From Nemertoderma westbladi (lineage: Eukaryota > Animalia > Xenacoelomorpha), in contig JAUCBJ010002619.1 of assembly GCA_032718475.1 (NCBI GenBank), positions 1 to 64,000 on the forward strand: a stretch of DNA of 64,000 nucleotides, read 5' to 3'. Positions 3,171 through 39,987 of this stretch are shown in pieces. Under the pieces are notes generated by a model, which searched no databases, was not told where the DNA came from, and saw nothing but the letters and a program-made list of their open reading frames with translations. How positions within the stretch are numbered: the first letter of the stretch is position 1; each line of letters begins with the position of its first letter. The position numbers were made by a program, and so were the translations under genes.

Positions 3171-4620
3171 AGAAAATTTTGGCGAGGTTGCGTGCTTTCT
3201 TATGTTTTGACATATAGACCTGTAAACTGACATAAAGACGGACAGACAGACCAACCGACAATGTGAAGTCAGAAATAAAAACTGAGATCGGAAATGAAAT
3301 CGGCGACCTGGAAAACCCCTGTAACAAAAATTTTGGCGAGGTTGCGTGCTTTCTTATGTTTTGACATATAGACCTATAAACTGACATAAAGACGGACAGA
3401 CAGACCAACCGACAATGTGAAGTCAGAAATAAAAACTGAGATCGGAAATGAAATCGGCGACCTGGAAAACCCCTGTAACAAAAATTTTGGCGAGGTTGCG
3501 TGCTTTCTTATGTTTTGACATATAGACCTATAAACTGACATAAAGACGGACAGACAGACCAACCGACAATGTGAAGTCAGAAATAAAAACTGAGATCGGA
3601 AATGAAATCGGCGACCTGGAAAACCCCTGTAACAAAAATTTTGGCGAGGTTGCGTGCTTTCTTATGTTTTGACATATAGACCTATAAACTGACATAAAGA
3701 CGGACAGACAGACCAACCGACAATGTGAAGTCAGAAATAAAAACTGAGATCGGAAATGAAATCGGCGACCTGGAAAACCCCTGTAACAAAAATTTTGGCG
3801 AGGTTGCGTGCTTTCTTATGTTTTGACATATAGACCTATAAACTGACATAAAGACGGACAGACAGACCAACCGACAATGTGAAGTCAGAAATAAAAACTG
3901 AGATCGGAAATGAAATCGGCGACCTGGAAAACCCCTGTAACAAAAATTTTGGCGAGGTTGCGTGCTTTCTTATGTTTTGACATATAGACCTATAAACTGA
4001 CATAAAGACGGACAGACAGACCAACCGACAATGTGAAGTCAGAAATAAAAACTGAGATCGGAAATGAAATCGGCGACCTGGAAAACCCCTGTAACAAAAA
4101 TTTTGGCGAGGTTGCGTGCTTTCTTATGTTTTGACATATAGACCTATAAACTGACATAAAGACGGACAGACAGACCAACCGACAATGTGAAGTCAGAAAT
4201 AAAAACTGAGATCGGAAATGAAATCGGCGACCTGGAAAACCCCTGTAACAAAAATTTTGGCGAGGTTGCGTGCTTTCTTATGTTTTGACATATAGACCTA
4301 TAAACTGACATAAAGACGGACAGACAGACCAACCGACAATGTGAAGTCAGAAATAAAAACTGAGATCGGAAATGAAATCGGCGACCTGGAAAACCCCTGT
4401 AACAAAAATTTTGGCCAGGTTGCGTGCTTTCTTATGTTTTGACATATAGACCTATAAACTGACATAAAGACGGACAGACAGACAGACCGACAATGTGAAG
4501 TCAGAAATAAAAAGTGAGATTGGAAATGAAATCAGCGACCTGGAAAACCCCCATAACGAAAATTTTAGTGAGGCGGCGTGCTTCCTTATTTAGAGACATA
4601 AATTTGACAGACAGACAGAC
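3171..4620. repeat. 154-bp tandem repeat, about 9 near-identical copies, inside the Kolobok-like element
   Basis: Identical 62-aa spurious ORFs recur every 154 bp (3374, 3528, 3682 ... 4144). The last unit is diverged. Confidence 0.95.
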
Positions 4621-26792: not shown

Positions 26793-26820
26793 ACTAACTG
26801 TATCTACCAACTAAACTAAC

Positions 26821-27282
26821 CTTGAACTCGTTGTAAACTCCAATCTGTGATTCTTTATCCCGGTACCCCATGGAGAATAAAGTAATGACACCCGATCTGT
26901 TGAGAAACGATTTGCTTCCCCAGGTCTCCCTTATTATATTCCGTTTGTCAACGTCTGGTGGCGCTGATTTTACAATAACAACAGTCAATACGCGAGCAGG
27001 TCTATCAATAGACATGTGGAAACAAGCTAGTTTGTTTTCAATCAGATAAGATGGTTGAGATGAATTTAATTCGGGATTTAGCTGTAGGCGTTCATTAATA
27101 ATATGGCTCTCTTCTATTTTTCGCGTGGTCTTGTAATCGTAGAGTTTATCTTCGTTCATAGATTTCTGAACAAGGACTTTTACAACAACCGATCCCGGGA
27201 GAAGAACGCTTTGTATCATGATGCAGGTTAAACAGAAAATTACTCCAGTTGCGCACAACATACACAATCGTTGTAAACTCAT
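26821..27282 (-). CDS. GT31 beta-1,3-galactosyltransferase-like gene, coding exon 1
   Basis: ATG at 27282. N-terminal hydrophobic type II anchor (LCMLCATGVIFCLTCIMIQSVLL), a stem, then VVIVKSAP...KRNIIRETWG...TLFSMG, the GT31 motif I. Donor AAG|GTTAGT at 26820. Confidence 0.88.
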
Positions 27283-27882
27283 TATTGTAATGCGATAAAT
27301 AATCACTAGAAGTTCTATAAAACCGGTAATACCGGTGAATTGACTCTAGTTTCTATTAAAATTATTCTCATCCATGATAAATATTACAAATTTTCTTTTG
27401 TTTATAAATAAATTTTGCAAACCAATATAATGAAAAAATTGTTTTACCTTAAGCCACCTGACCTTAAGAAGAACACTTAAGAAATACACCCTAAAAATCA
27501 TTGAATAATTTATTTATATAAAACGACTTGTGGGTATCGGATTCAGATTCATTAATAAACCAATTTGAATGTTTCACAGAAGTTAAGTTATAAGTTAATC
27601 TAAGCGTAAGGAATAGGCAGCGGATGTGTTTCTTATACTAATGTATCAAGAGGATTTCTAAGTTACGGTCTATAGAATATTGAGGGGTGCCATGTTGGAT
27701 GTATGATTGTTTGGTAGCATCACTAACTAACTACTACAGTATGGTAGTTCTGGGAAGAATTTCATGGTTCGTTTATTCCGCTATAATAGTTACTTACTAA
27801 AATTTCCAACGTTTCAACTAAACAGTAGCCGTTATCAGGGATAATTAAACACAAAAGAAGTAAAGAATGCTGAATAATAAAT

Positions 27883-28858: not shown

Positions 28859-28910
28859 GGGGTAACTCTGCTGGGACTCTCACTGCACTGCAAATCTAGA
28901 GCCTGTAAAA
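28859..28910 (-). repeat. Split direct repeat B2 (52 bp)
   Basis: GGGGTAACTCTGCTGGGACTCTCACTGCACTGCAAATCTAGAGCCTGTAAAA, identical to 29432-29483. Confidence 0.9.
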
Positions 28911-28968
28911 TACCCGTAAGTGCAACACAGTCAGAGTATCAGCAAAGCTAAAGGGTGGGTTGGGTGGG

Positions 28969-29341
28969 TAAAAATAAGTCTTGTACATTTAACAGAAATG
29001 TAAATAGCTAGCCAATATTGTCTTCTGAGCAGAATATTATAGTCAGTCTGAACTATTAATTACTCGCTGTTCTTACCAATATATATCTAAGAACCAATCA
29101 CAGCACAGTGTCAGTCAGCTTTCCTGCTGTGTCTATCTATCGTGGTTACTGGCTCATTACTTCTAATCAGTGCTAACCCAGCCTGCCTACAGCAGGCTAC
29201 CTATAGAGAGGGTTAGGAGTTGCTCTGTCTTGTCGGGCTGTCTTGGTAGTTGCTATGGTTACACCCACCTCTGTATTCTGTTCCTTATAGTAAACCTTAG
29301 CCTTACCAGGTAAAGAGCTTTACTTATACCAAAGACACATT
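28969..29341 (-). repeat. Split direct repeat A2 (373 bp)
   Basis: Matches 36442-36821 apart from a 7-bp duplication (ctgaact) and one substitution seen by eye. Confidence 0.93.
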
Positions 29342-29431
29342 ACCTGGCCAGTCTATGGTTGTTATGACCCTGATCGACTATGACATATCATCTGATATGA
29401 TCATTCAAATGCATTATGTGATGAGTGTTTT

Positions 29432-29483
29432 GGGGTAACTCTGCTGGGACTCTCACTGCACTGCAAATCTAGAGCCTGTAAAA
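29432..29483 (-). repeat. Split direct repeat B1 (52 bp)
   Basis: Identical to 28859-28910. Confidence 0.9.
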
Positions 29484-29640
29484 AACCCCCAAACCCCAGA
29501 AATAAAAAATGTAAGAGAGGATTTCTAGAATGCAATATTTTTCTTATACAGGTAGTTAGGTTTATCTAATGAAATAATAGTTAGGTTTATCTAATGAAAT
29601 AATACAATTTTTTCAATGTTTGTGTTTCGGAATGATAAGT

Positions 29641-29988
29641 TTATTTGTATATTCCCAATAGTGCAATTGTTTTTTGTGCTTCTACTAGTTCTCGATCGTA
29701 CGGTCTAATATATCGTTCGTAGCATGAGCTGCGCCACCTTCCTAGCTTCTGTATGATGGTAGTTGGTAGACCCGCTCTGGACGCTTCTGTGGCAAGTCCT
29801 GACCGGAAACTGTGACTCGAGTATCCTGGCCCTAAAATATCTCTAACCATGCAGTTCACTTTCTGTGCGCGCAATGGTATACCTTCGCAAAACATGAACA
29901 ATTTCATGTTTGGTAACATCACGGAGTCCCGGTATCTAAGGTAAGTTTTGACACGTTTATGTGGACAAAATGCACCCCCTACCTCTGC
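29641..29988 (-). pseudogene. Tyrosine recombinase, C-terminal fragment (N-terminal part deleted)
   Basis: FCPHKRVKTYL...YSSHSFRSGLAT...IQKLGRWRSSCYERYIR contains the HxxR, GRW and catalytic Y of DIRS-type YRs. The first catalytic Arg box is absent. An out-of-frame ATG near 30025 may be the original start. Confidence 0.85.
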
Positions 29989-30370
29989 GGCCTTTGTTGG
30001 ATAGCACAGCCACAGCTTTCGACATGGATAATGAATTACCAGTATGAGTTAGAAATTTTAAGGATGTGTTTATTTACATGCATATAATGTTTATATTAAA
30101 CGCATAACAGCTGTGATATAGTACATAACACAAATTTAAAGTCCTATAGTCTGAATAATATAGACATTAAAACTAAACATAACTAGATATGAAACACACA
30201 GAATACAGTTAGACCATGCATAATAACAATTCATCAACAGATTATTAATACCTACTCAGAGGTTTATTTATAATTGAGTGGGTACGCAATGATAGAACAT
30301 GACTTGTAGTAATATATTAGGTACTTTCTCTTGTGATTATCTACTCCAGTTAGTAGGGAAAGCTGGGTGC

Positions 30371-31534
30371 TTACCCCTGCTGTATGTATTGCTTCCCAAG
30401 AGCTTTCTTTGGCTGAGTCTTGATTGTGGGTATATACGCCCTATCGCGGTTAGAGGATCCTGACTGATAGGCATTGTCATCTCTGCTGCGTTTACTATCA
30501 GGTGCGTTATATCCGTCGTTACGTGAGCTACTTGTCTCTTGAATGTCCGAATCGTCAAAACGACGACGACGGCTGCGACAATCGAAACGATAGTGGCCTT
30601 CACGACCGCAATGATGACATATTACACCCTTACGGAAGCTGTCTGACATGCTTGGACGTGGCTTGTTGAAACCCTTCACAGCTTCCCAGCGTACACAGCT
30701 ACCTAGGTGCTGTTTGTCGCAATTCCTACACTGAGACATGTAGTCATTTCGAAGCGGGTTTCTAAGTGTAAGAGGGCGCCCCCATTCTCCCTTTGCTGCC
30801 TGAACATAGAGTCGATGGTCTCTATCCATTCTTTGAATATACCCAAAGGTATAAATCGGAGCAATCTCTAGAATGTGACGGTAGTACGTCCATATTGAAG
30901 CTGAATCCTCAGGAAACAACTCGCTTTTATAGCTACAGAAGAGCGCTAGACAATTGAGGAGTGACCCTGTCGATTCAAGTTCGGCATTCTTGCCAGGTTT
31001 CCCATTGGTCTCATGGCGCTCCGCCAGTTCAGCTAAATTCACAAATTTATGTTGCACACGTAATTTGTCTATAATTGCTTCATCTAAAGGTCGTGTGCAT
31101 GACAGAATTGCAGGTAAAACCACCTTTGACTTAATCTCAATAAGGCCTGAATTTTCATGTGTCTGAATGTTGCCAGCTGTATGGCCTCCATTTGCGACTT
31201 TAACCATTAGTTCCACCAGTTTATTTAGAGCGGAGGTTTCGTTTAGCTGTTGCAGATTAGCTGCTGAGTGAATAGAATCGATATCTCCACTCGTTGATGC
31301 CGCTTGAATTGGCAGGAACATTTTTAGTCCATCCTTTGACTGACCCATTTCATAATGCACTCCCGTGATTGTTAATGGTTGATCTGTTGTTAATTTCGAT
31401 AAAACGTCGGTGGTCAGTGAGATTTTCTCCCATACTTTCTGATTAGAAGTCTGATTTATAGCCAACTTCTGCCACTCACCGGACTGTAGAGTTTGGCAGA
31501 GAGATCCCACCGGATATGAAACATCAGGATTCAT
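30371..31534 (-). CDS. Gag-like ORF of the YR retrotransposon, with CCHC zinc knuckle
   Basis: 387 aa. The segment IIDKLR..KFVNLAEL...LALFCSY...FP...IWTYYRHI...DRDHR...W resembles DIRS/Ngaro ORF1. CHHCGREGHYRFDC is a CX2CX4HX4C knuckle followed by a basic tail. Confidence 0.75.
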   Translation of the reverse strand: MNPDVSYPVGSLCQTLQSGEWQKLAINQTSNQKVWEKISLTTDVLSKLTTDQPLTITGVHYEMGQSKDGLKMFLPIQAASTSGDIDSIHSAANLQQLNETSALNKLVELMVKVANGGHTAGNIQTHENSGLIEIKSKVVLPAILSCTRPLDEAIIDKLRVQHKFVNLAELAERHETNGKPGKNAELESTGSLLNCLALFCSYKSELFPEDSASIWTYYRHILEIAPIYTFGYIQRMDRDHRLYVQAAKGEWGRPLTLRNPLRNDYMSQCRNCDKQHLGSCVRWEAVKGFNKPRPSMSDSFRKGVICHHCGREGHYRFDCRSRRRRFDDSDIQETSSSRNDGYNAPDSKRSRDDNAYQSGSSNRDRAYIPTIKTQPKKALGKQYIQQG

Positions 31535-31726
31535 AGTTCATGAATATATATCAATTATTATGTTATATATAATATAGCTGTATATGTAGCTTCTCACATA
31601 TCGCTGTGTATACCAAATACCATAATAATGTAATATGAATATATGTGTAATAAAACTATTGTTAGACAGAGGTGAAACTAGTTAAACACAAGGTGATATA
31701 ATCAAATCGGAAATTAAAGAGTGTAA

Positions 31727-32218
31727 TTACTTGGTGCAATCCTTAGGGGTTAGCAATTTTTTAATGTGTTTCCATTCCTGTAAAACTACAGTTGGTTCGT
31801 CCTCCATTTGCGGAAACAGTCGTTTAAACGAATCGATCTTTAATCTGCTTAGCAGATCGGGTCCTAAATTGTCATGGGATCTGATGTGTTGGCAGAAAAT
31901 CATAATGCCGTATCTAGTACAGACTTGCAATAAATATCTAATCAAATCCATGAGGTAGTTATTGCTTGATGCACCCTTGACCATGGCATTCAGGACTGTT
32001 TCACTATCACTGTGTAGTAGCAGCCGTGACCCTGTAAAGGCACGTCCAAATACTGCAGTAGCTAACACAATGGCAGCCATTTCCTTAATGGCTATTGGAT
32101 ATCCACTCACTATGTCATCCGAAAGCTGTAATGCAAACCATTGTTTGCTATGAACCGCTCCTAGCCCATAGCCTGAAGCATCGGTAGCCATATTATGTTG
32201 GCTAGGTTTAATCATGAC
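31727..32218 (-). pseudogene. RNase H domain of the YR retrotransposon pol, separated from RT by a LINE insertion
   Basis: TDASGYGLG...IAIKEMAAI...LHSDSETV...HIRSHDNLGPDLLSR: DIRS-type RNase H with the D-E-D-D catalytic residues. Confidence 0.88.
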
Positions 32219-33549
32219 TACTAGGATCGGCATGCTGCATTGCAGCTGCATTTTTAAGAATGCTGTGCCGGCTTGTCAACAAAATTGCACCGCCACAACT
32301 CCCTATCACCCATGACATTTGCTAGATCATCCGCATCTTTAAGGCCAGTGTCCTTTAAGATGCGTCTCAAGAAAGTCATGGGCTGTCCACCATGCTTATT
32401 CACTCCATGAGGCTGCCAAAGTACAAGATTATGCACTGGCTGGTCCTCACGGCGAAAGCAATGTCCTGCAAAGCGGAGGCGGTTTTGTTCTAGTGTCAAG
32501 CTTGGGGGAACCAATGAGACACCTCCAATGTTATATAGTGTCTGGTTGGAGATGTGTGCATTGTACTTGACACAATGAACCCGGCGTAGCATTCTTGTGA
32601 ATGTGCCATCCAGAGATTTGGTGTCCTCAGCAGTTAGAGCCCAGCATGGACTCCCATAGAGGAGTACTGGAACTACTGCTGCTCTAAATAATCGGACCTT
32701 AAGTTTCCGATTAATTCTCGGTGACTTCCAAATCCTGGAAAGCCTATTCAAGGCTGCCCATGCCTTTCCCTTACGTATTCGAAGGTCCTCACCTGACTTC
32801 CGGATCCATGATCCCAGGTAACAGAAGTCGTCCACATGCTCAAGCATACCATCCTTTGAGCTTATGCTCATCCGATCAGAGACTTGCTGAGGACTTTCAA
32901 AGTTAACGGTCAGAATTTTGGTCTTTCTGGAGTTAATAAAAAGACCAACACTAGAAGCAGCATGTTCTAATGAGCTGAGGAGCCGTTGGGCTCCCTCTAA
33001 TGATTCTGAGAGTACTCCTAAGTCATCAGCAAAGTCTAGATCAGTTAGGTACTTGGCAGGATTTCCTCGACTTCTGGAGCCAGTAGGTGGAGTTATCATC
33101 ACCCCATCATCATTATGATGATCTAAGGACATGCGTAGAACATAGTCAACCACAATAATGAACAAGAATGGTGCAAGTGTGTCTCCTTGGAGGACGCCCC
33201 ATAACACTTCAAATGGTTCTGTGTCACCGTCAACAGTAGACACAAATGTTGTCGAACCATCGTATACTGATCTGATTGCTGCAATAATTTCATCAGGAAT
33301 CCCATATAATGAAAGTATGCTGAACATACGTGAGCGAGAGACTGAATCAAAGGCCTTGAAGAAGTCAACAAAGATAACAGCCAGATGCCTGTCTTTCTTT
33401 TTTGATAATTCTTCAATTATCCTTCTAAGTGCCAAAATGGGCTCCATGGTCCCACGACCTTTACGGAACCCATTCTGATTTCCACGGAGCAGTCTCTCAA
33501 TGGGATCCCTGATGCGATTTAATAGAATCCTATTGTATAGCTTTGCAGC
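32219..33549 (-). mobile_element. 5'-truncated RTE-clade LINE with 9-bp TSD
   Basis: RT motifs QNGFRKGR, FVDFFKAFDSV, GVLQGDTLAP, LDFADD, FCYLGS and C-terminal RLRFAGHCFR. Short 3' UTR ending in a TAG repeat. TSD AATCATGAC at 32210-32218 and 33550-33558. Confidence 0.92.
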
Positions 33550-34825
33550 AATCATGACAGGGTTCTGTAAAGGTGCCCTATGTTGCTCTACACAGTCCAG
33601 AGCCAACTTCCAATAGTCAAGGTCTTCATGCAAGTTGTCTGGAATGCTAATCATCTTTTGCTGATGTGGAACACATGTTGCATCTATCAACCTCCGCAGG
33701 AATGTCCTACTTGCACATACTGCTTTACATAAAAAAGAGAGCCGACCTATACCTTTCTTTCTTATCATCAGGTATAAAAAACTTCATGGTTGACGTGTCG
33801 ATGCCTATACCAAATACAATTTGATGTTTAGCCGGACGGAATAATTTATGTTCATTTAAAGGTATGTTATATCTACTGAACAAGTCTATGACCATGTCTA
33901 AAATGTGGTCTGCAAGGGCAGGCACATCTACTGTAACTATGATAAAATCATCTAAAAGATGATCGACGTCTGCTACTGATGCAAGTGACAACTCTCTTTG
34001 TTCAGTTGCAAGTAATTTCATATGTTCAGCAGGGCAGGTCGTCTCAGAAAGACGCTCATAAATGACGTTTCTCACCAGGGTGCTATAGTTCTGGAATATC
34101 CGACTGGCAGATCTTAACCCGAAAACTAATCTAGTATAAACAAAATAAAAATCTCGCCACTGTATACCTAAGAGATGCCAGTCTAATTTGGAGACTGGGA
34201 TAATCTTAAAGGCATCCTTAACATCCAACTTGGCAATCAGTGCGCCATCACCTGAACTAATTATGTTTCGAACAATCGTATCGATTGTTGTATATGACAC
34301 AGTGGAATCCTCATCCGAAATAAAGCTGTTGACAGTTCCTTTTCTATCATTGGAGAAGTCTACACACAGGCGGGTCTTTTTGCCTGGAATTTGACTGAGG
34401 GTCAGAGGATCAATGACATTTAGAAAAGTGTTGGTTGTAATGTTTGGTAGGGTCAGAAAAGGTCCTTCTAGGTATCCAGAGTTTACTTCCTTCGCAATAA
34501 TGTCATCAACAATCTGTGAGTTGTCGGTGGCTGACTTGTTGTTCTTGCGGTGTATGTAAGTGTTTCGTGGCCCATTATACCCAATACGCACACCTTGGCG
34601 TAACTGTTGCATTAATTCTGAAACCTCTTGCGATTGGGCATGGAAACGTAAATCATCCTCAAGTTTGTCTACATTGATGGGAGTAGATGGGTGTTTTTCT
34701 ATGATGTAACTGCCTTTTCGTATTTTCAAGTGTTGAAATGCCTCTGACGCTATGTTTGCTAGATCGTTTTGATCTATGTAATAAATATGGTCAGCCACTG
34801 TTGAACTCGTGATATCCATTATCAT
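33550..34825 (-). pseudogene. Reverse transcriptase of the YR retrotransposon (frameshift/deletion near 33750)
   Basis: GVRIGY, NNKSA, RLCVDFS...VNSFI, AKLDVKDAFKIIPV...LLGIQW, RLVFGLRSASRIF, LLDDFII, FGIGIDT. Continues in another frame as IGRLSFLCKAV..SRTFLRRL...DLDYW. Confidence 0.9.
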
Positions 34826-35049
34826 ATAATCATTTTAAAAGTCCTATAGAACTAGACTTATAATATCTGATAGCTCTAACTGTTAGTCGCCTACTGGTAA
34901 CTATCTCTATAGCTCAGTAGCTGTACTTATGTTGTATGCCAATATGCACTAATGCACTTGCACTACTGCACTAAATGACTACGCAATATATCAGTGCGCT
35001 TCAAGTATTATTTTCAGATAAATGACAGTAACTCAGCTTCAGTAATACT

Positions 35050-36062
35050 ACAATAGGGCCCAAGTACTGTCCAATATTTTCAAGGCAACAGACCCAAGTC
35101 CAATAAACTACAGTTGTTGGATGCTTGAAAGTGCAGAAGTGCAACAACTCAACTTGTGCAACAGGCTGAAGTCCGGTGAAATGGTTGGTAGACAATGCAA
35201 GAAGTCTACTTGTCTGACTCATGTCCAATAGTTGACAGTGCAATAACTGAATAACTCCTTGGTAAACAGACAAGTCAGCAAGTTTTGTCTATTACTTCAG
35301 TACTTGACAGTGCAATAATAATAATTGCATAGTTGTGCAACAGGCCCGAGTCCCCTGGAATAGTTGGCAGTGCAATAGCGTCACTTTGCTCTTGGACAAC
35401 AGATCCGAGTCCTGTCTAATAGTTGCATCACGATATAACTCCACTTGGGAAACAGGCCCGAGGTCTGTCAAACAATTGACAGTGCAACAACTCCACTCGC
35501 TCATCCAAATACTTAACAGCGCAATACTGCAATAACTCCACTGGCTAACTGGGGCAACAGACCCAAGTCATGTCAAATGCTTGACAGTGCTCTAACTCCA
35601 CTTGGACAACAACTCCAAGTCATGTCCAATACTTGACAGTGCTCTAACTCCACTTGGACAACAACTCCAAGTCCTGTCAAATAGTTGACAGTGCAATATA
35701 TCTACTTGGTCAACAGACCCAAGTCCTGTCCAATACTTGACAGTGCTATAACTCCACTTGGAAATCAAATCCAAGTCCTGTCCAATACTTGACAGTGCTC
35801 TAACTCCACTTGGACAAGAAACCCAAGTCCTGTCAAATAGTAGACAGTGCAATAAATCCACTTGGTCAACAGACTCAAGTCCTGTCCAATACTGTGACAG
35901 TGCTCTAACTCCACTTGGACAACAAATCCAAGTCCTGTCAAATAGTAGACAGTGCAATAAATCCACTTGGTCAACAGACCCAAGTCTTGTCCAATAGTTG
36001 ACAGTGTAATAAATCCACTTGATCTACAGATCCAAGTTGTGTGTAAATAGTTGACAGTCTGA
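35050..36062. repeat. Degenerate 52-bp tandem array with two inverted repeats per unit, in the 5' leader of the YR element
   Basis: TTGACAGTG recurs at 35581, 35633, 35685 and 35737. One unit reads ACTTGGA-caacaac-TCCAAGT-c-CTGTCAA-atag-TTGACAG (35652-35691). Confidence 0.85.
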
Positions 36063-36441
36063 CAGTGAGCAGTGGCAGAGTAATAAATGCGATCACAACG
36101 CAATGTTTACTTATCGTGTATTTACAATATATGGAATGTGTCAGTACAGCAGTATGTGTGTGTGTAAATACAATACGGAGTGGCCTACGCATACACAGGC
36201 TGTATGCAATGGGTATGCGCGTGGTATACTGTAAACGGTATTGTACTGTGACAGACCAAGAGTATACAGGTAAAGCTCATCAAGAAGGGAAAGAGCAAAA
36301 TTGCTCATCAAGCACTGAAGCAGAAATTGTATCAGCGAAATCGAAAGGAATGCTGCAAGTCAGCAAATTCAAACAGAACTGCAGAGAAAATAAATAAAAA
36401 ATCAATAAATATAGGTGTTCAATCTGCAATCTGTTAATCAA

Positions 36442-36821
36442 TAAAAATAAGTCTTGTACATTTAACAGAAATGTAAATAGCTAGCCAATATTGTCTTCTG
36501 AGCAGAATATTATAGTCAGTCTGAACTCTGAACTATTAATTACTCGCTGTTCTTACCAATATATATCTAAGAACCAATCACAGCACAGTGTCAGTCAGCT
36601 TTCCTGCTGTGTCTATCTATCGTGGTTACTGGCTCATTACTTCTAATCAGTGCTAACCCAGCCTGCCTACAGCAGGCTACCTATAGAGAGGGTTAGGAGT
36701 TGCTCTGTCTTGTCGGGCTGTCTTGGTAGTTGCTATGGTTACACCCACCTCTGTATTATGTTCCTTATAGTAAACCTTAGCCTTACCAGGTAAAGAGCTT
36801 TACTTATACCAAAGACACATT
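36442..36821 (-). repeat. Split direct repeat A1 (380 bp), 5' end of the YR element
   Basis: Near-identical to 28969-29341. Confidence 0.93.
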
Positions 36822-37741: not shown

Positions 37742-38445
37742 AACAGGCATTCCTTTAGGAAACATAGTGGAAGGGTTTACTGTGGAAGATCACCCATGGT
37801 GGTGAACAGACATTACTTTAGGAAACAGAGTGGAAGTGTTAACTGTGGAAGATCACCCATGGTGGTGAACAGGCATTCCTTTAGGAAACATAGTGGAAGG
37901 GTTTAGTGTGAAAGATCACCAATGGTGGTGAACAGGCATTACTTTAGGAAACAGAGTGGAAGTGTTAACTGTGGAAGATCACCCATGGTGGTGAACAGGC
38001 ATTCCTTTAGGAAACATAGTGGAAGGGTTTACTGTGAAAGATCACCAATGGTGGTGAACAGGCATTCCTTTAGGAAACAGAGTGGAAGGGTTTACTGTGG
38101 AAGATCACCCATGGTGGTGAACAGACATTACTTTATGAAACAGATTGGAAGGGTTTACTGTAGAGGATCACCCATGTTTGTGAACAGGCATTCCTTTAGG
38201 AAACAGAGTGGAAGGGTTTACTGTGGAAGATCACCCATGGTGGTGAACAGGCATTCCTTTAGGAAACAGAGTGGAGGGGTTTACTGTGGAAGATCACCCA
38301 TGGTGGTGAACAGGCATTCCTTTAGGAAACAGAGTGGAAGGGTTTACTGTGGAAGATCACCCATGGTGGTGAACAGGCATTCCTTTAGGAAACAGAGTGG
38401 AAGGGTTTACTGTGGAAGATCACCCATGGTGGTGAACAGGCACTC
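37742..38445. repeat. 63-bp minisatellite, ~11 copies
   Basis: Unit AACAGGCATTCCTTTAGGAAACAGAGTGGAAGGGTTTACTGTGGAAGATCACCCATGGTGGTG, translating as a 21-aa repeat. Confidence 0.95.
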
Positions 38446-39067
38446 CTTGGCTTAATGAGCCTAAAAGATTCTCACATTCATTATTTGAAATAAGCAAGAG
38501 ACGAGATTTTATAACAAAAATAATATGTATATATATAATATGTATAATAATAATATTTGTATATTGAGATTATTAATTGGAATAAATTAAATCGCCCTTT
38601 ACGGCCAGGACCAAAATTTATATTTTTTTACTAAAATGCTACTTCTTCGAAAAGTTTTATTTTGTAACTTGTAACCTGATTTTTTTATTTTGATGGTCAA
38701 TTACTTGAAAAAAAATTGAGCAGAATATTTGCTTCCACTTTTTAATGCAAAAGCTGCTGTTTTCTAAATAAATATCAAATTTTCAGAAAAAGCACGGTTT
38801 CTTTTCGTAAAACAAGTTATAACAGCAGAACAAAGCATAAAATGTTGTGAGAGATAGGCCTATCCACCATGTAATGTTACTGTTATATTATATTATATAT
38901 ATAGTTAAATCACTGAGTGAGTGGACCGGGAAGCCACTTAATTATAAAATGTGAACTCAGCCTCTGGGCACTTTTTGTTAGATTTTTGTAAGATTTTTTT
39001 TATAGAAGAAGTCAGATATTTTATTGTTGTTAACCCGCGCATCTAAGTGGGCAACAAAATTTTGAGT

Positions 39068-39987
39068 TTGATCTAGACTTTGCTGATGACTTAGAGTAGG
39101 CCTACTGACAGGATTACTAGGGGACCCAACGGCTCCGCAGCTCATTGGAACAGACTGCTTTTAGTGTTGGTCTCTGTCAACTCCAAGAAGATAAAAATTA
39201 TTTGGAAAGTGAACATTGACAGCCCTAAGGAAATGTTTGATTTATGAGTATAAGCTCTAAGGATGGTGTGATTGAGTATGTGATTTCTGCTACTTGGGGT
39301 CATAGATCCAGAAGCCAGGTGAAGGCCTTCGGATATCTAAGAAGATTGCACGGGGAGCATTTAATAGTCTGTCCAGAATTAAAAAGTCCCATAGAATAAA
39401 ACGGAATCTCAAGGTTCGATTATTTACAGCAGCAGCAGATCCAGTACTCCTCGAAATGGTAGTCCATACTGGGTGGGCTCTAACTGCTGAGAACACCAAA
39501 TCTCGGGAATTTTCGGTAAAATAAACTTATCATTCGAGGTTAAGACCCCTAGATCCCTTCTTATAATAAATGTATAATAACAAACACCTCGAAAAATACA
39601 GCTTGCCAACACATAGTTACTATCAAAAATCTCGGAAAGGCATATACAAGAATTATACGCCGGGTTCATTGTCTCATTCAACCAGACACTATATGATATT
39701 AGAGGTGTTTCATTAACCCCCCCCCCCCCCCAGCTTGACACTTGAACGGAGCCGCCTCCGCTTTGCAGGACATTGGTTTCGCCGAGAGGACCACAAGTGA
39801 ACCATCATGTGCTTTGGCGGCTTCATGGAGTGAATAAGAAAGGCGGGGAGCCCATGACTTTGTTGAGACACCTCCTAAAGGATGAAGTTATTTCTCGCAA
39901 AAGTTTTGGGGGGTGGGGAGTTGTGGCGGCGCAATTTGACGATTTCATGTTTAATACAGCTGCAATGCAGCATGTTGATAGTAGTAG
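39068..39987 (+). mobile_element. Degenerate 5'-truncated RTE LINE of the same family as 32219-33549, in opposite orientation
   Basis: GATCTAGACTTTGCTGATGACTTAG (DLDFADDL) through CAGCTGCAATGCAGCATG..TAGTAGTAG aligns with the reverse complement of ~33045-32219. Many frameshifts, and an unrelated ~150-bp segment at ~39502-39655. Confidence 0.85.

Follow-up and report, generated by a model that had tools for sequence, protein, structure and literature searches.

A decayed Ngaro-like tyrosine recombinase retrotransposon of Nemertoderma westbladi with reverse transcriptase ahead of a likely gag

The arrangement A1-[ORFs]-B1-A2-B2, in which the open reading frames (ORFs) lie between split repeats, has been described for the tyrosine recombinase (YR) retrotransposons Ngaro, PAT and VIPER (PMC4157794, PMC9210276, PMC6681497). 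Where the descriptions examined state an ORF order for YR retrotransposons, all put gag first (including PMC6681497 and PMC3266345). In the replication model for DIRS elements, the ends are recopied from internal repeats and insertion by the YR leaves no target duplication (PMC7192593, PMC3266345). We analysed a 64,000-nt stretch of DNA from the xenacoelomorph Nemertoderma westbladi (assembly GCA_032718475.1, contig JAUCBJ010002619.1, positions 1 to 64,000 of the forward strand), which we call the window and whose positions serve as coordinates throughout. It contains a YR retrotransposon at 28859-36821, lying entirely on the minus strand between satellite arrays. ORF and Pfam analysis gives the gene order reverse transcriptase (RT), RNase H (RH), a 387-aa Gag-like ORF and the C-terminus of a YR. 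The element is probably one decayed member of a Ngaro-like family, small and young, that has RT-RH, a likely gag and YR in that order between split repeats, that likely transposed in this form, and whose Gag and YR were likely made from shorter RNAs of their own.

The split repeats frame the element. Repeat search and alignment placed the 380-bp A1 at the 5' end (36442-36821) and B1 (57 bp, 29432-29488), A2 (373 bp, 28969-29341) and B2 (28859-28915, the 3' end) downstream of YR. A1 and A2 differ by one mismatch in 373 positions plus a 7-bp duplication, and B1 and B2 are identical at 56 of 57 positions. There is no target-site duplication around the element, the flanks sharing at most 1 base, and the repeat search found no inverted repeat pair at the ends of the kind that, together with an ICR, marks DIRS1-like elements. 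A1 carries TATA-like and CCAAT-like words and is likely the promoter. The 90 bp between B1 and A2 (29342-29431, from alignment and contigs) are missing from both element ends and vary among copies, which means that a circle junction was not simply copied to give the internal junction. The start of A2 is predicted to lie within a long hairpin, in a folding made with no shuffle control. A search of Rfam returned no match at E 0.1, and the window holds no second copy of the element.

Between A1 and RT is a 1.6-kb non-coding leader (34820-36441), in which the tandem-repeat search found an array of a 52-bp unit (9.8 copies at 35548-36058, with decayed units to about 35150). ORFs in the leader are translations of the array, whose 52-bp unit is not divisible by three. 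The first gene begins at an ATG at 34819 with the RT domain (33752-34819; LLDD active-site motif; Pfam RVT_1, E 1.8e-5), continues through a connecting part of 66 stop-free codons (33550-33751) and ends with RH (31727-32209; Pfam RT_RNaseH, E 9.9e-5), where four candidate acidic residues fall in TDAS, KEM, SDS and PDLLSR. Spacer 1 (31535-31726) separates it from the Gag-like ORF (30371-31534), and spacer 2 (30017-30370) precedes the YR remnant (29641-30016). The initial annotation, made from the sequence alone, had reported no long ORF between A1 and RT, a Gag-like zinc-knuckle ORF downstream of RH and near-identical A and B repeats. All three observations hold: the longest methionine-initiated ORF on the minus strand of the leader has 73 aa, and the Gag-like ORF (31534-30371) follows the end of RH at 31727. 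It had also described three genes separated by AT-rich spacers. The spacers are real (192 bp with 25.5% GC, and 322 bp with 29.5% GC, measured to 30048, where the stop-free YR frame starts), but the genes are not intact in this copy. The lack of overlap that it recorded is not unusual, as the ORFs of Ngaro and VIPER usually do not overlap (PMC3266345).

RT with RH, a tyrosine recombinase and the absence of a target-site duplication are features of the order DIRS, and the element has all of them. It is Ngaro-like in its split direct repeats, A1 followed by B1-A2-B2 after YR, and in having no methyltransferase, but it fails the gag-first feature, since Ngaro order is gag-RT-RH-YR. PAT-like elements carry a methyltransferase after RH; here the ORF stops 38 aa past the last RH motif, and Pfam gave no methyltransferase match. 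Nor does the element have the order gag, YR, RT/RH of VIPER. The order pol-gag-YR is a circular permutation of this gag-YR-pol order.

Comparison with individual groups sharpens this placement. The element resembles Ngaro in having B1-A2 after YR, RT-RH without methyltransferase, a co-oriented YR in last place and non-overlapping ORFs (PMC9210276, PMC3783388, PMC8547959). It differs in that the Gag-like ORF is second, in its AT-rich spacers of 190-350 bp, in the array-bearing leader of 1.6 kb before RT, and in the 90 bp between B1 and A2. VIPER/TATE elements share the repeats and the absence of methyltransferase, and some of their gags have a CCHC knuckle; however, they put gag first, have an RT/RH of up to about 950 aa (about 608 here) and are known only from kinetoplastids (PMC6681497). 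PAT elements, including Kangaroo and TOC3, have split direct repeats, and the gag of Pat1 has a zinc finger, but PAT-like elements encode a methyltransferase and the YR is inverted in Kangaroo and in a Daphnia PAT (PMC4157794). SymbioDIRS-Dnmt3 has A-coding-B-A-B repeats and provides a precedent for shuffled ORF order in YR retroelements; its shuffle, however, concerns YR relative to Pol, it carries a DNA methyltransferase (DNMT), and the word gag does not occur in its main text (PMC5890265).

The order pol-gag-YR is apparently unreported. We found no report of it in a search of the text of open-access papers, and the text of PMC12477816 examined has nothing on gene order. There is a small chance that the order is already catalogued in Repbase, Dfam or subscription reviews. 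ORF order is fluid in the order DIRS, as the YR/Pol shuffle of SymbioDIRS (PMC5890265) and the inverted YR of Kangaroo (PMC4157794) illustrate; against this, the open-access descriptions that state an order put gag first, and none with pol before gag was found among them.

The copy in the window is dead, having been broken three times. First, 74 bp were deleted between 33751 and 33752, where contigs of two sequencing runs, X1 and X3, carry 74 letters, and by frame arithmetic this deletion causes the RT frameshift near 33752. Second, a 5'-truncated RT fragment of a long interspersed nuclear element (LINE, non-LTR) is inserted at 32210-33549 (1,340 bp, including one copy of the 9-bp target duplication at 32210-32218 and 33550-33558). 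A 509-aa ORF at 32254-33783 is accordingly chimeric, fusing the RT-RH connector of the element to a non-LTR RT (RVT_1, E 2e-24; DUF6451). With the LINE removed and the 74 letters restored, RT-RH forms a single frame of 609 codons including the stop, provided that those 74 unseen letters are stop-free. Third, the YR is truncated. About 115 codons are left of its C-terminal catalytic part (HSFR, GRW, Tyr; Phage_integrase, E 3.3e-4); HxxR, W and Tyr are all present, and the N-terminal catalytic Arg falls in the missing part. The remnant aligns only to residues 195-288 of the 324-aa YR of L001, a gag-first locus discussed below, with 39% identity. Between 30016 and 29988 the window is short by a net 582 bp (27 letters where contigs have 609), a deficit of 194 codons that equals the 194 residues lying ahead of the aligned part in the full-length L001 YR. 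The family of the inserted LINE has an enormous summed contig depth, and a second fragment of it, 71-77% identical to the first, lies at 39069-39987 on the plus strand.

Other copies were examined through assembled contigs of public sequencing runs aligned to the region, using the best-supported rows only. Seven of the eight listed runs contain part of the region, and three contain over half. X1 and X3 represent two samples from two studies. Fixed differences from the window show that the contigs represent other copies. In X1 and X3, the LINE is missing precisely from the main contigs (joint 32209-33550, 1,340 letters skipped, 9 letters fitting both sides). One X1 contig (2,627 nt) starts in the leader at 35574, covers RT-RH and reaches 75 nt into spacer 1 (31652), without the LINE and with the 74 letters. 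Spacer 1 is joined to gag in an X1 contig of 829 nt (31625-30797) and in an X3 contig of 311 nt (31667-31357), the latter overlapping the X1 RT-RH piece by 16 nt (31652-31667) across runs. A further X1 contig of 1,248 nt (30436-30016 and 29988-29771) passes from the last 66 nt of gag across the whole of spacer 2 into a YR with the 609 letters. Diverged relatives in X2 and X3, with 87-90% identity to the window (46 differences in 465 nt and 68 in 523 nt), also run from RH to spacer 1 and from spacer 1 to gag. The leader is covered at element depth by X1-X3 contigs, and depth is level over RT, RH, gag and YR (about 120-156 in X1, vs 19 for one flank contig). Contigs of X4 match the 5' array and not the ORF parts, and the gap there carries no weight; X5, which we guess to be RNA, yielded no matching record and X7 only two flank pieces.

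These contigs tie spacer 1 both to RH and to gag, and pol-first order is most likely a trait of the family, not a nested element or a local scramble. The initial annotation had allowed that gag might lie upstream of RT in other copies, or that the 387-aa ORF might belong to a nested element. The contigs of other copies show neither, and the ORF keeps the same neighbours in copies without the lesions. That the order belongs to a family that transposed with it is, in our judgment, highly probable.

How such an element would replicate can be sketched from the DIRS-order model. A full-length RNA would start inside A1 and end in B2, the knuckle protein would package it, and reverse transcription would follow, the missing ends being recopied from the internal A2 and B1. 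Recopying of the ends is our proposed reason for the near-identity of the A and B pairs. The YR would then insert the product without a target duplication. From the likely start in A1 to RT, the leader measures about 1.7 kb and contains 12 ATGs. With such a leader and AT-rich spacers, frameshifting or readthrough cannot link the genes, and separate RNAs for Gag and YR are therefore likely. We lean towards subgenomic mRNAs that begin, or are spliced, in the spacers, a suggestion drawn from the layout of the sequence. A 12-letter word ahead of both RT and YR was considered as a common signal and rejected, having failed a corrected chance test: exact matches arose in 4 of 200 resamples for the RT-YR pair, and the local score was reached in 100 of 1,000 resamples for that pair and in 620 of 1,000 as the best of ten pairs.

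The same family structure could be expressed differently, with YR made from a spliced Gag-YR fusion or with operon-style trans-splicing into single-gene mRNAs, although we consider this unlikely. A donor-like GTAAG word (GG/GTAAGC) overlaps the gag stop at 30374, the start of YR is not visible, and AATAAA occurs downstream of both gag and YR. However, the donor-like word is one of 12 in the element outside the LINE, the sole AG visible within the stop-free frame of YR has the wrong phase, and AATAAA is to be expected in AT-rich DNA.

The relatives of the element bear on its history. Its RT is 44% identical to the nearest proteins, P0001 and P0014 (both metagenomic), and 29-33% identical to the other six. 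In an RT-RH tree the window sequence, P0001 and P0014 group at 100/100, apart from gag-first L001; this tree has nine unnamed rows and is without named DIRS, PAT, Ngaro or VIPER references. A broad RT query of contigs retrieved two loci, L001 (1-4356) and L002 (4245-10294), both gag-first; L002 was left out of the trees, its RT being fragmented. Scans of viral, metagenome and genome contigs gave no locus of the RT clade or of the gag family. L001 and L002 lie in records labelled as bacterial metagenome-assembled genomes, with eukaryote-like neighbours, and these records are likely host contamination.

Could an ordinary gag-pol-YR Ngaro have been rearranged once and then multiplied passively, through segmental duplication or with a canonical partner copying it in trans, and without any adaptation of its expression? 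The few copies, the flanks that are themselves repeats of similar depth, a sub-group with a broken gag and the gag-first order of both L001 and L002 would fit such a history. It is nonetheless improbable. The main contigs keep RT-RH in frame and have a YR of full-length size, the relative that is 10-13% diverged has the same RH-spacer-gag chain, the A and B pairs are near-identical, and L001 falls outside the element's RT clade. In addition, flank-repeat contigs pass 28858 and continue without the element (two in X1 and three in X3), which fits insertion into a repeat.

The 387-aa ORF is likely the element's gag, to judge from its sequence features. It has a CxxC..H motif and a CCHC knuckle (zf-CCHC, E 0.0015, under the gathering cut-off), and an ORF scan found no other candidate gag in the element. 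A full HMMER search with the ORF gave nine matches, four of which (P0005, P0006, P0007 and P0012; 330-362 aa) extend over the whole length with 20-25% identity and have the CxxC..H motif and CCHC knuckle in common; the other five match around the knuckle only, as do the sequence matches in PDB. A word-indexed search retrieved none of 1,377 candidates. The profile of this protein family aligns colinearly with the first ORF of gag-first L002 across 160 columns (hhalign E 7e-4, probability 26%). Against the L001 and L002 gags together the probability is 23%, and against the L001 gag fragment it is 2%; the similarity is weak, though compatible with a gag. The structure model is of low confidence (pLDDT 48). 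Foldseek found no match to it among viral structures at E 0.001, and in a fold comparison (VIA) the best Z was 6.2, with a common helical arrangement. We also observed a knuckle-less sub-group in X1 and X3, in which the zinc knuckle at 30575-30632 is replaced by 3 letters and 2 bp are lost at 30774; this sub-group is decayed or non-autonomous. That the ORF is instead an accessory gene captured by the element, or a nested element in its own right, in a family that is gag-less or borrows Gag, is quite improbable: only the knuckle matches Pfam, below the cut-off, and hhalign probabilities against canonical gags are low, but no repeats or target duplication flank the ORF to give it ends of its own, its depth and linkage are those of RT and YR, a DIRS-order gag would be expected to have its size, its helical core with a knuckle and its colinear match over 160 columns, and the element has no other candidate.

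We thus favor a Ngaro-like family that moved with pol first, and several points weigh against this. The RH-gag link is an overlapping chain: among the contigs listed, no single one has 31 or more coding letters on both sides of spacer 1. X1-X3 come from only two samples, one of which may be the window's own source. Depth is not copy number, and to judge from linked minor alleles at roughly a third of the depth, near-identical copies may number as few as 3; segmental duplication could have added to them, the flanks themselves being repeats. About one third of the X1/X3 contig depth is gag with the knuckle deleted and the 2-bp loss. Gag homology is weak (hhalign probability 23-26%, and 2% against the L001 gag), and the lack of named references in the RT-RH tree also counts here. 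Finally, an in-frame ATG for YR is not visible, the ATG at 30025 being out of frame, and no expression signal passed a chance test.

Some further features of the window may be noted. Satellite arrays occupy 6481-26795, 42387-62838, 3173-4589 and 37742-38448 (a 29-bp unit with 694 copies and a 31-bp unit with 652 copies, plus 154-bp and 63-bp arrays). A 183-aa ORF on the minus strand (26794-27345), which we take to resemble a glycosyltransferase exon, has no Pfam match at E 0.01. The word CAAGTCTA of the flank repeat recurs twice nearby and matches the likely empty-site sequence (28328, 28855-28858/36821 and 37418); this recurrence possibly reflects a site preference.

The initial annotation had proposed an undescribed pol-first YR lineage. 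The contigs support the order as a property of the family in one species. We speculate, tentatively, that there is a deep and widespread lineage of pol-first YR elements, of which this element is the first to be seen and to which P0001 and P0014 (by RT) and P0005, P0006, P0007 and P0012 (by gag) would also belong. This lineage would have dropped the gag-first layout, possibly when the repeat ends shifted position around a VIPER-type circle of genes, and would make each gene product from its own processed RNA. Families of this kind could be overlooked or wrongly annotated by pipelines that assume a fixed domain order (e.g., ReDoSt, PMC3266345) or that search for gag upstream of RT only. With three spaced genes, where RNAs start and where they are joined can be predicted sharply and put to the test. 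To our knowledge, the expression of YR retrotransposons is almost unstudied. With gag in first place, retroelements obtain abundant Gag and only a small amount of Pol from a single RNA. In a family that moves with pol ahead of gag, the Gag:Pol ratio must be set in another way.

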